Shown here piece by piece: positions 22,873 to 24,330 of a stretch of 24,824 bases of DNA; position 1 is the stretch's first letter, and each line of letters starts with the position of its first letter. The stretch lies in IMG/VR virus record IMGVR_UViG_3300050821_003111; one strand, written 5' to 3'. The position numbers and the translations under genes are program-made. The notes under the pieces are model-generated. The model did not search any database. It was given only the letters and a program-made list of their open reading frames with translations, and had not been told where the DNA came from. The stretch comes from a virus.

Positions 22873-24162
22873 TTACTCCGAATGTTTGCTTGCTAAATAA
22901 TCCACTGATACAAGTTTCAATATTACGCGACCAAATCTAGGTTGTATTCTTTCAGTCAAGGGTTTAATTACGATTCCTTCTCGTATGTGATTGGCTCCAG
23001 GTACGGTACTTTTACCATTAGATAGCTCCCTCATTAATGTTTCGGTATAAGTTACAATACCTAAGGTAGGAACCCAGTTAGCCAAAATACCCAAATCTGA
23101 TATCTCCTGATTATTGAGCCACTTACCTTGTGGTTGATCTGGGTCACGCAAACTAGGATCTAATACGTCAAACATAAATATACGGTAACTACCTTTTGAT
23201 TGTCCGTAGTTCATCTTTTGAGTAGGAACTAACTCGCCATATAGAACAAGTCCTGGATGAGCTTTACAGAATTCTTCAATCCAAGGGTTCTGTCGTAGTG
23301 CCATCCAGAAAACAGAACCAGGAACATCTTTCTTCCACTGATAATGGCTACCGACGTACATTCTTTTGCCATTACCATCATGGGACGTATTGGAATCTCC
23401 AAATGCATAAGTGAACTTGCAGTTGGCACCATGGATCTTCTCCGTAACCCAGACAGCTTCTCCTTCTTTGAAGAAGTGCCTATATCGTTGCCAGGAGTCA
23501 ATATCATAGTTTGGAATTACTAGACCTGTATTCTCCTCATGGCCAATAATAGTGTCTTTTGGAAATAACTTGTGCCAGAGGAACTTAATCCAACCGCGTA
23601 AGGTCTTTGGATATCTAGCTCTCTTTTTAAATTTATTAGGAGCTACGTCGCAATCTCCAGCTAGATTAGTAGCTTCAGGTGGATTATAATGAGTAATACC
23701 TAGTTCTTCGGCTACGTCTTCTCCTTCCATAGCCACGACTTTTCCATTATCTATAAAATGACTGGGAAAATCCGTCACTGGTAATAGTAATCCTTCTGAT
23801 ACAACTCCACGAAGAACCTTGGCTTTAACACGCCGAAATCTCTCTGGTATAGTATTCGGCAATAATTCCTTATCTTTCGTTACATTGTCCACAACGACTT
23901 TGTATTGATCGATAGTGGGAATATATCCCTTGCCTTCCCAGATAAATGCAAATACTGGAGTCTGTGGGACGATGGAATCAGGAGGAATATAGATTCCTAG
24001 ATCTCCATCTTTGAAGTTACCTTTGCCAATACAAACACTATAACCATATACCATTACTACTTCAAGCCTATCGGCATTTGGATGGGGTTCAGGATGTACA
24101 ACTACTATCTCACATTTGTGAGTACTTTTATCTGTTTGATCCAGTGGGGAATAATCGGTCAT
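22873..24162 (-). CDS. fusion protein: N-terminal tRNA-binding OB domain (Myf/Trbp111/CsaA type) + C-terminal Rnl2-type RNA ligase nucleotidyltransferase domain
   Basis: N-terminal CEIVVVHPEPHPNADRLEVVMVYGYSVCIGKGNFKDGDLGIYIPPDSIV matches the tRNA_bind domain consensus. The C-terminal half carries Rnl2 motifs: I EKIHGAN (T4 Rnl2 EKIHGTN), III LVLYGELV, IV EGIVIKP (EGYVLKP), V RVILKLV (RVAIKCK). Confidence 0.8.
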   Translation of the reverse strand: MTDYSPLDQTDKSTHKCEIVVVHPEPHPNADRLEVVMVYGYSVCIGKGNFKDGDLGIYIPPDSIVPQTPVFAFIWEGKGYIPTIDQYKVVVDNVTKDKELLPNTIPERFRRVKAKVLRGVVSEGLLLPVTDFPSHFIDNGKVVAMEGEDVAEELGITHYNPPEATNLAGDCDVAPNKFKKRARYPKTLRGWIKFLWHKLFPKDTIIGHEENTGLVIPNYDIDSWQRYRHFFKEGEAVWVTEKIHGANCKFTYAFGDSNTSHDGNGKRMYVGSHYQWKKDVPGSVFWMALRQNPWIEEFCKAHPGLVLYGELVPTQKMNYGQSKGSYRIFMFDVLDPSLRDPDQPQGKWLNNQEISDLGILANWVPTLGIVTYTETLMRELSNGKSTVPGANHIREGIVIKPLTERIQPRFGRVILKLVSVDYLASKHSE

Positions 24163-24330
24163 TTACCCTCTCGCTTGTGCTTTGTCATATTCTTCGAGAA
24201 GAGCATCGATGAAATCAGGACGAACAAAAAGCTTAGCAGTTCGGCACTTACGAAGTTCTTCAATCTTCTTTTCATTTGTATTAAATGGATCTGCTACTGG
24301 TGCTGCTGTCTTTATTCCCGTTTTAGCCAT
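24163..24330 (-). CDS. small protein, 55 aa (MAKTGIKTAAPVADPFNTNEKKIEELRKCRTAKLFVRPDFIDALLEEYDKAQARG), translationally coupled to the ligase fusion
   Basis: AAGGAGCTACA+ATG ribosome-binding site. Its TAA is immediately followed by the ATG of the ligase gene. Confidence 0.5.
   Translation of the reverse strand: MAKTGIKTAAPVADPFNTNEKKIEELRKCRTAKLFVRPDFIDALLEEYDKAQARG

Follow-up and report, generated by a model that had tools for sequence, protein, structure and literature searches.

Does the ligase gene near one end of a viral DNA stretch, IMG/VR record IMGVR_UViG_3300050821_003111, encode a new kind of tRNA-directed enzyme, or a member of a family that is already known? The stretch, 24,824 nucleotides (nt) long and referred to here as the window, lies within a 39-kb soil-type metagenomic contig (JGI 3300021088); L001 is the parent contig and L002 a second copy. 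On the minus strand of the window, a 429-residue open reading frame (ORF) joins an N-terminal OB domain to a C-terminal nucleotidyltransferase (NTase) domain. A sequence-only reading of the window had taken this protein for an Rnl2-type ligase fused to a tRNA-binding module and served by a 55-residue partner. The ligase gene is real and intact, and its product is an Rnl5-family RNA ligase of the DraRnl/NgrRnl type, an ordinary member of a family whose architecture has already been described. In our judgment, the enzyme probably seals nicks in duplex RNA as part of a conserved RNA-maintenance cluster, where it would complement an Rnl1-type ligase after Pnkp has acted. The coordinates of all features are collected in Table 1.

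Profile searches gave a consistent family assignment. Pfam recognizes PF21189 ("PHA02142 OB-fold domain") at residues 23–74 (E = 1.1e-12) and PF09414 (RNA_ligase) at residues 236–418 (E = 2.1e-19), and the same pair is present in 92 of 92 relatives. The match to PHROG 968 ("RNA ligase") runs nearly end to end, with query residues 13–427 aligned to positions 7–393 of the 398-position profile (E = 1.7e-36). The NCBIfam equivalog model TIGR02306 (RNA_lig_DRB0094), which was built on DRB0094 (DraRnl) of Deinococcus, scored 153.1 bits (E = 8.6e-45) against a curated cut-off of 151.15 bits. Among solved structures, the sole significant sequence matches were entries for the RNA ligase of Naegleria gruberi (NgrRnl). 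When the profile of the 92-sequence family was compared with the Protein Data Bank (PDB), NgrRnl was matched across both domains at 3e-31 and T4 Rnl2 at 1.6e-3.

The predicted fold agrees with this assignment. An AlphaFold model of the 429-residue ligase (pLDDT 87.7, pTM 0.86) was searched with Foldseek, and the top 13 matches were all NgrRnl entries (E from 5e-24 to 6e-21, ∼425 aligned columns). The superposition was full length, with a target-normalized TM score of 0.69–0.77 over these 13 best matches and of 0.74–0.77 where E = 5e-24 is quoted for NgrRnl. The next match was T4 Rnl2 (E = 2e-7), which was aligned over the NTase domain alone (∼250–264 columns). Relatives of the ligase are abundant: at least 2474 proteins reached E ≤ 1e-5, and the 120 matches listed carry PF09414 and/or PF21189, nearly all of them both. 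Some bear the JGI name "RNA ligase (TIGR02306 family)", and relatives are encoded in 173 deposited phage genomes, where "RNA ligase" is the usual annotation. The nearest metagenomic relative, in locus L006, is 68% identical, and the nearest homologue in an isolated phage is gp64 of Tunturiibacter phage Tunturi_3 (34.8% identity).

The order of the domains is the one published for this family. DraRnl was described as having "no C domain at all", its C-terminal adenylyltransferase being preceded by a distinctive, putative OB fold (Raymond and Shuman, 2007; PMC1807946), and a homologue in Aeromonas phage 44RR2.8t was listed in that study. The name Rnl5 was given to a family that includes viral members (Unciuleac and Shuman, 2015; PMC4408790), and a summary of Rnl5 crystal structures counts bacteriophages among the hosts of Rnl5 genes (PMC7261155). 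The Rnl5-type N-terminal OB module is present in the query. So is the other hallmark, an NTase domain that is followed by no further domain and ends ∼30 residues past motif IV (PMC1807946); here, the motif IV glutamate is E395, the motif V lysine is K416, and the chain stops at residue 429. Since the protein ends 13 residues past the motif V lysine, there is no Rnl2-type C domain, as the sequence-only reading had correctly noted. The same reading had found motifs I, III, IV, and V, which are indeed present, but the core that carries them is of the Rnl5 type and not Rnl2, a classification that the profile and fold scores rule out. Its claim that the architecture was undescribed is wrong, because an OB domain followed by an NTase domain has been published as the defining layout of Rnl5, phages included (PMC1807946, PMC4408790, PMC7261155).

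A fusion of recent origin, in which an Rnl2-type ligase without its C-terminal domain was joined to an unrelated N-terminal domain, could draw on the distant NTase similarity to T4 Rnl2 given above and on a match to a second "RNA ligase" family, PHROG 548 (E = 2.9e-11). However, the two domains jointly match NgrRnl far better, at full length, and their layout is common to thousands of proteins and to the curated TIGR02306 model; it is therefore an old, established architecture. We regard a novel fusion as extremely improbable, and the framing of the gene as a new architecture carries no weight, as the layout is the textbook definition of Rnl5.

The active site is well conserved. The NTase motifs are I (K242IHG), Ia (G271-S272...W276-K277), III (E310), IIIa (F331-D332), IV (E395-G396), and V (R412...K416), and K242, E310, F331-D332, E395-G396, and K416 are invariant among the 92 relatives. 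In the profile alignment, the motif residues fall on K170, E227, E312, K324, and K326 of NgrRnl, with K242, E310, E395, and K416 equivalent to K170, E227, E312, and K326, respectively. The invariance of K242 (92 of 92) bears on the sequence-only reading, against which a motif I lysine that varied among relatives would have counted. In the OB domain, D62 is invariant in the family and corresponds to NgrRnl D53. By homology, the enzyme would follow the classic three-step pathway. In step 1, K242 would attack ATP to form ligase-AMP, while the OB domain closes over the NTase pocket and engages the γ-phosphate and metal, with D62 in the place of NgrRnl D53. In step 2, AMP would move to the 5′-phosphate, and attack by the RNA 3′-OH would then seal the break. 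The substrate expected from homology is a duplex nick between a strand with an RNA 3′-OH and a 5′-PO4 end, with Mn2+ probably favored.

We infer the physiological role of the ligase from its gene context. Genes for Pnkp, Rnl5, an Rnl1-type ligase, a Thg1-like protein, a SpoU-family methyltransferase, and tRNAs, together with a candidate RNase P RNA, form one conserved same-strand cluster in which NAD+ salvage genes are interleaved. Pnkp, which lies outside the window on the parent contig, is also found upstream of the ligase in L003, L004/L005, and L006, and the order Pnkp ... Rnl5 ... Rnl1, Thg1-like (SpoU) recurs in L003, L004/L005, L006, and L009/L010. A contig of up to 216 kb also carries the ligase of L003, and L010 is part of a contig of 215 kb. 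Large-phage RNA-repair cassettes that combine several ligases, PNK-HAD, Thg1, and tRNAs with adjacent NAD+ salvage genes have been described (Iyer et al., 2021; PMC7824862). At the DNA level, the whole window matched deposited phages in tRNA fragments only, and PADLOC gave no matches.

Wider counts were made in 80 IMG/VR viral loci, in which Pnkp was detected by tblastn at E ≤ 1e-5. An Rnl1-type ligase lies within 10 kb of the Rnl5 gene in 31 of them (25 of the 47 loci that are at least 18 kb long) and is the sole widespread neighbor. The linked Rnl1-type gene is always on the same strand as Rnl5, 19 nt to 9 kb away, and the two are directly adjacent in two loci. The Rnl5 enzyme would most likely act on breaks in base-paired RNA (tRNA stems, rRNA helices, or splinted ends), sealing them once Pnkp has healed the ends. 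It would thereby complement the Rnl1-type enzyme, which would act on anticodon-loop breaks, much like the T4 pair Rnl1 and Rnl2. A role against anticodon nucleases is plausible from the neighborhood; the Rnl1-type gene of the window would encode the canonical ligase for tRNA repair in that pathway. The value of the locus lies in this context: an abundant viral Rnl5 clade repeatedly shares its strand with an Rnl1-type ligase and, in the closest lineage, is also found with Pnkp, Thg1-like, SpoU, and tRNA-His genes. A hypothesis that can be tested follows: phage Rnl5 would be the duplex-break arm of an RNA-repair counter-defense.

Several observations weigh against this interpretation. The TIGR02306 cut-off is exceeded by just 2 bits, a narrow pass that arises because insertions break the match into three stretches. 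Of the NgrRnl residues that act in step 1, K121 is replaced by a near-invariant histidine (H158), and R4 and R149 have no confidently mapped equivalents: R4 probably lies within the conserved stretch K12-S-T-H15, where the mapping is ambiguous, and R149 falls on a non-basic column (S223), two to three positions away from basic residues, which is ambiguous as well. Because of these differences, the details of step 1 in the phage ligase may depart from those in NgrRnl. The linkage of Pnkp, Thg1, and SpoU is seen in three, two, and two of the 80 loci, respectively, and is confined to the closest phage lineage. Around gp64 of Tunturi_3 are genes of DNA replication and recombination: a DNA helicase lies on one side and a primase/helicase on the other, and endonuclease VII and UvsX are encoded close by. 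Biochemistry is known for DraRnl and NgrRnl and not for any phage Rnl5 enzyme, and neither of the two has an established physiological substrate (PMC5397189, PMC4408790).

The setting of gp64 fits the main rival, in which the ligase would seal nicks in phage DNA that carry a ribonucleotide 3′-OH (RNA patches from gap repair, or primer remnants), as has been proposed for DraRnl in radiation resistance. Rnl5 enzymes seal RNA-OH/pDNA nicks in vitro, and loss of DraRnl sensitizes Deinococcus to ionizing radiation (PMC4408790, PMC5397189). The neighbors of the gene in the window and in its nearest relatives are RNA-directed or belong to NAD salvage, however, and are not replication genes, and the linkage that recurs is to Rnl1-type ligases. 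We consider a DNA-side role unlikely and retain the sealing of duplex RNA as the preferred function.

The OB domain is what had suggested a dedication to tRNA. The sequence-only reading had assigned residues 15–110 to a tRNA-binding domain of the Myf/Trbp111/CsaA kind. The subtype was recognized correctly, in that the N domain shares its OB-fold subtype with the tRNA_bind family (PF01588), but Pfam assigns PF21189, and PF01588 stays below threshold (14.4 bits, where 27 are required; E = 0.04) and touches residues 111–137 only. Recognition of the subtype restates a published observation, since the N module of DraRnl was likened to the B2 OB domain of the PheRS beta subunit (PMC1807946), and it does not demonstrate that tRNA is bound. 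Adenylylation of the lysine by NgrRnl and DraRnl requires the N domain, with R4, K121, and D53 engaging the γ-phosphate of ATP and the metal; for the sealing of a pre-adenylylated nick, the domain is dispensable, even inhibitory. The specificity for a 3′-OH RNA end is seated in the NTase domain, and the role described for the Rnl5 N domain is in adenylylation, tRNA binding being unreported (PMC1807946, PMC7261155, PMC4408790). In some relatives, a Cys-rich insertion (e.g., ...GACPHADPATGPLTVVDGTKGEVCQMCGECNPF...) occupies a variable spot of the OB domain that corresponds to query residues ∼75–105; its sequence would allow a zinc-ribbon-like embellishment as one possibility.

A ligase dedicated to tRNA would use the OB domain as a Trbp111/CsaA-like specificity module and the 55-residue protein as a cofactor, and it would reseal tRNAs cut by anticodon nucleases of the host. 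The contact of 5 of the 92 relatives with PF01588 at E ≤ 0.01 (best 6.3e-4), the JGI name "tRNA-binding EMAP/Myf-like protein" given to a few of them, and the tRNA theme of the cluster (Pnkp, Thg1-like, tRNA-His, and the RNase P RNA candidate) speak for it, and a basic insertion that is specific to the clade (see below) could add RNA contacts. It is opposed by the subthreshold score of the query, by the characterized Rnl5 N domain, which serves step 1 while RNA specificity lies in the NTase domain and so leaves a specificity-conferring OB module unsupported, and by the presence in the window of an Rnl1-type gene, the class known for anticodon-loop repair.

The layout of the genes upstream of the ligase bears on the same alternative. 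As had been reported from the sequence, the 55-residue ORF is present on the same strand, and its TAA stop codon is immediately followed by the ATG of the ligase (GGGTAAATGACC). Each ORF has a Shine-Dalgarno-like sequence, AAGGAG at the small one and GAGAGGG at the ligase. The tRNA-His and tRNA-Leu genes that had been placed after the ligase do exist; they are encoded on the minus strand, like the two ORFs, and so lie upstream of them. When the region from the tRNAs to the ORFs was scanned for patterns, the minus strand showed no terminator-like site at any point and no promoter-like site ahead of the ligase start, a result that is weakly consistent with one transcription unit and proves nothing. 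The four Rfam-confirmed tRNA genes of the window are joined by a fifth that was called by ARAGORN alone. Of the 80 viral loci, 16 have tRNA genes no more than 1 kb from the ligase, a count in favor of a tRNA-dedicated enzyme. A tRNA-His gene is found again in related loci; in L006, the closest relative, no tRNA lies upstream. Adjacency to tRNA genes was rejected as a trait of the family on these grounds.

The 55-residue ORF has three homologues among 5.8 billion proteins, compared with at least 2474 relatives for the ligase, and it was found in 1 of the 80 loci. No Pfam family scored above its curated cut-off, and PHROG, NCBIfam, and PADLOC gave no match. The copy in L006 is 76% identical, and core codon differences between the two are 13 synonymous versus 4 non-synonymous; judged from sequence, the ORF is a real gene, lineage restricted and under purifying selection. 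In relatives whose ligases are 52%–58% identical, the slot holds unrelated small ORFs, two of them hydrophobic. A conserved module of ∼45 residues (DPFDTNEKKIxELRKxR...RxDFIDAL) recurs at the N terminus of a 114-residue protein in L007, where it does not adjoin the ligase, and at the N terminus of a 224-residue protein in L004, 2.7 kb from the ligase. The ORF was consequently rejected as a conserved partner, and the cofactor function that the sequence-only reading had suggested has no comparative support. Taken with the OB evidence, a tRNA-dedicated ligase appears quite improbable to us, and sealing of duplex RNA breaks remains the interpretation that we carry forward.

What does set the phage protein apart is its length. 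It is ∼90 residues longer than NgrRnl and DraRnl (429 versus 339–342 residues) because of an embellishment of the OB domain (residues ∼66–110), an insertion of ∼45 residues between the domains (∼172–218), and a loop after motif I (∼254–268). Within the insertion, the AlphaFold model confidently predicts an amphipathic helix at residues 188–199, and P185, G190, and W191 are near-invariant. The insertion is missing from NgrRnl, in which profile positions 150–195 have no counterpart, and from three short forms of 316–320 residues retrieved in the same search (P0049, P0070, and P0097). It is carried by 104 of the 119 relatives retrieved and by Tunturi_3 gp64, and the PHROG 968 profile, with its 398 positions, agrees with its presence; the viral long form thus typically carries it. 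A conserved feature of the clade, the insertion would probably add contacts to nucleic acid or between the domains. It is conceivable, if rather doubtful, that the long-form viral enzymes are a distinct subfamily in which the insertion, with its YPKTLRGW... helix, and the tRNA_bind-like OB domain dock tRNA or rRNA. The subfamily would then be Rnl1's partner for sealing stem and duplex breaks in a conserved phage island for tRNA maintenance and repair (Pnkp, Rnl5, Rnl1, Thg1-like, SpoU, tRNA-His, and RNase P RNA). If true, this would be the first physiological role for any Rnl5 enzyme.

Table 1. Features of the window, with the Pnkp gene of the parent contig; residue numbers are those of the ligase
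Feature	Coordinates	Strand	Basis and remarks
Rnl5-family ATP-dependent RNA ligase ORF, 429 aa	22873..24162, stop codon included	minus	ORF list, PF09414+PF21189, PHROG 968, TIGR02306, NgrRnl profile, AlphaFold/Foldseek
N-terminal OB domain, residues ∼1-165, embellishment ∼66-110	23668..24162	minus	D62 = NgrRnl D53; R110/R111 invariant
Basic insertion between OB and NTase, residues ∼172-218 (DVAPNKFKKRARYPKTLRGWIKFLWHKLFPK...), pI 10.2	23509..23649	minus	clade-specific
NTase domain, residues ∼219-429	22876..23508	minus	PF09414 236-418, invariant columns, NgrRnl alignment
K242 codon (predicted adenylylated motif I lysine)	23437..23439	minus	KIHG at 242; invariant 92/92; aligns with NgrRnl K170
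55-aa ORF directly upstream of ligase	24163..24330	minus	Shine-Dalgarno AAGGAG; stop abuts ligase ATG
tRNA-His(GTG)	24351..24426	minus, upstream of 55-aa ORF	ARAGORN; Rfam tRNA 62.2 bits
tRNA-Leu(TAG)	24448..24533	minus	ARAGORN; Rfam tRNA 57.5 bits
127-aa ORF, HEMTH (HExxH) motif, 2 nt downstream of ligase	22487..22870	minus	SprT-like E 0.0014, below Pfam cut-off
Four tandem mini-ORFs, 37-47 aa, each starting M(K/T)WW	22347-22490, 22224-22337, 22089-22208, 21979-22092 (within 21970-22500)	minus	
NMNAT-like/Nudix fusion	20994..21968	minus	overlaps NAMPT
NAMPT	19523..21001	minus	NAPRTase 1.7e-57 + NAMPT_N
T4 Rnl1-type RNA ligase, 396 aa	14951..16141	minus	PF09511 9e-20
Thg1-like 3′-5′ nucleotidyltransferase	13541..14299	minus	PF04446 1.9e-29; syntenic in L003, L004/L005, L009/L010
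806-aa ORF, major-vault-protein domains	11100..13520	minus	MVP_shoulder 2.7e-26, Vault_3 2.8e-10, Band_7/SPFH 5.4e-5
SpoU-family RNA 2′-O-methyltransferase	10482..11036	minus	PF00588 5.4e-15; syntenic in L004/L005, L009/L010
Candidate RNase P class A RNA (RF00010), 270 nt	8663..8932	minus	Rfam 106.3 bits vs gathering 100, E 6.5e-32
Glutathionylspermidine synthase-like ORF	4664..5806	minus	PF03738 2.4e-144
Calcineurin-like metallophosphoesterase	3656..4204	minus	
tRNA-Ile(tat), 93 nt, anticodon at position 31	2718..2810	minus	ARAGORN only
T4-like Pnkp, 314 aa, AAA_33 + HAD_PNKP	L001:5808-6752, outside window	ligase strand	3.2 kb upstream of ligase

Downstream of the ligase, the 127-residue ORF with an HExxH motif has no homologue in any of the 80 related loci, and among the loci fetched it occurs in L001 and L002 only, which have the same sequence. 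Different small ORFs fill its slot in L003, L004, and L007, and it was rejected as a member of a conserved operon. The gap between this ORF and the NMNAT-Nudix gene contains the mini-ORFs, three of which (all but 22089-22208) share a repeated 31-nt element that spans the ribosome-binding site and start codon (AGGAAATCAATATGAAATGGTGGGTTAGAGT). Embedded between the genes of the two RNA ligases, NAMPT and NMNAT-Nudix make up a phage pair for NAD+ salvage, which is also present in L003. There, PspA_IM30 and TPM_phosphatase genes lie between the NAMPT and Rnl1-type genes.

The Thg1-like gene belongs to the tRNA-His guanylyltransferase family, and it co-occurs with a phage tRNA-His(GTG) gene here and in L003, L004, and L010 (L003:9307-9395, L004:5629-5706, and L010:5507-5581). 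The tRNA-His gene of the window already encodes G-1 (position 24427), a discriminator C, and CCA, and the tRNA-His calls in two of the relatives are oddly long (78 and 89 nt). The Thg1-like gene and tRNA-His may be a functional pair. The ORF with vault domains lies immediately downstream of the Thg1-like gene. The Rfam tRNA model is silent at its gathering threshold over the tRNA-Ile call, which may therefore be an atypical tRNA or a false call.

The segment at 8663-8932 is a candidate gene for a compact RNase P RNA of the phage; it shares its strand with the tRNA and ligase genes. The match covers the entire RF00010 model (positions 1–367), and the P4-type sequences are kept (GAGGAAGUUCAGG ... 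ACAGAAACCUGG). Most of the region of the specificity domain is gone (97 model positions are represented by 18 nt), and one 3′ hairpin is deleted. A blastn search of deposited phages with this segment gave no match. The candidate may be more unusual than the ligase.

Comparison with known systems places the phage ligase closest to NgrRnl (PDB 5COT and others) and DraRnl (DRB0094). It shares with them an N-terminal OB and a C-terminal NTase domain with nothing past motif V, the NTase motifs, the metal-binding aspartate of the N domain, and a fold that matches over its full length. It is just 22%–30% identical to them, its motif I reads KIHG as in DraRnl and not KLDG, and NgrRnl K121 is a histidine. 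The phage member is encoded in an RNA-maintenance cluster, and its activity is a predicted one. The phages of PHROG 968, including Tunturi_3 with gp64, have a member of the same family in the long form and an Rnl1-type ligase nearby, and gp64 has the basic insertion; the neighbors in Tunturi_3 are replication genes and not Pnkp, Thg1, and tRNA genes as they are here. T4 Rnl2 has the NTase fold in common with the phage ligase, the same sealing of nicks in duplex RNA is expected by Rnl5 homology, and both enzymes share a genome with an Rnl1-type ligase. The all-helical C-terminal domain that is the signature of Rnl2 ligases (T4 Rnl2 and the kinetoplastid RELs) is absent from the phage protein, where an N-terminal OB domain is found instead, and the similarity to T4 Rnl2 is marginal (1.6e-3). 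To the OB domains of PF01588 (Trbp111, CsaA, the C-terminal domain of MetRS, PheRS beta B2, and Arc1p/EMAP II), the phage domain is related below threshold and with extra elements, and its Rnl5 counterpart is documented to position the γ-phosphate of ATP and the metal, not to bind tRNA (PMC7261155). As in the T4 Pnkp-Rnl1 pathway and the cassettes of large phages, Pnkp, an Rnl1-type ligase, tRNAs, a Thg1-like gene, and NAD salvage lie here in one same-strand region. Most phage ATP-dependent RNA ligases were placed in Rnl1 or Rnl2 (Iyer et al., 2021; PMC7824862), whereas the second ligase of this region is of the Rnl5 type.

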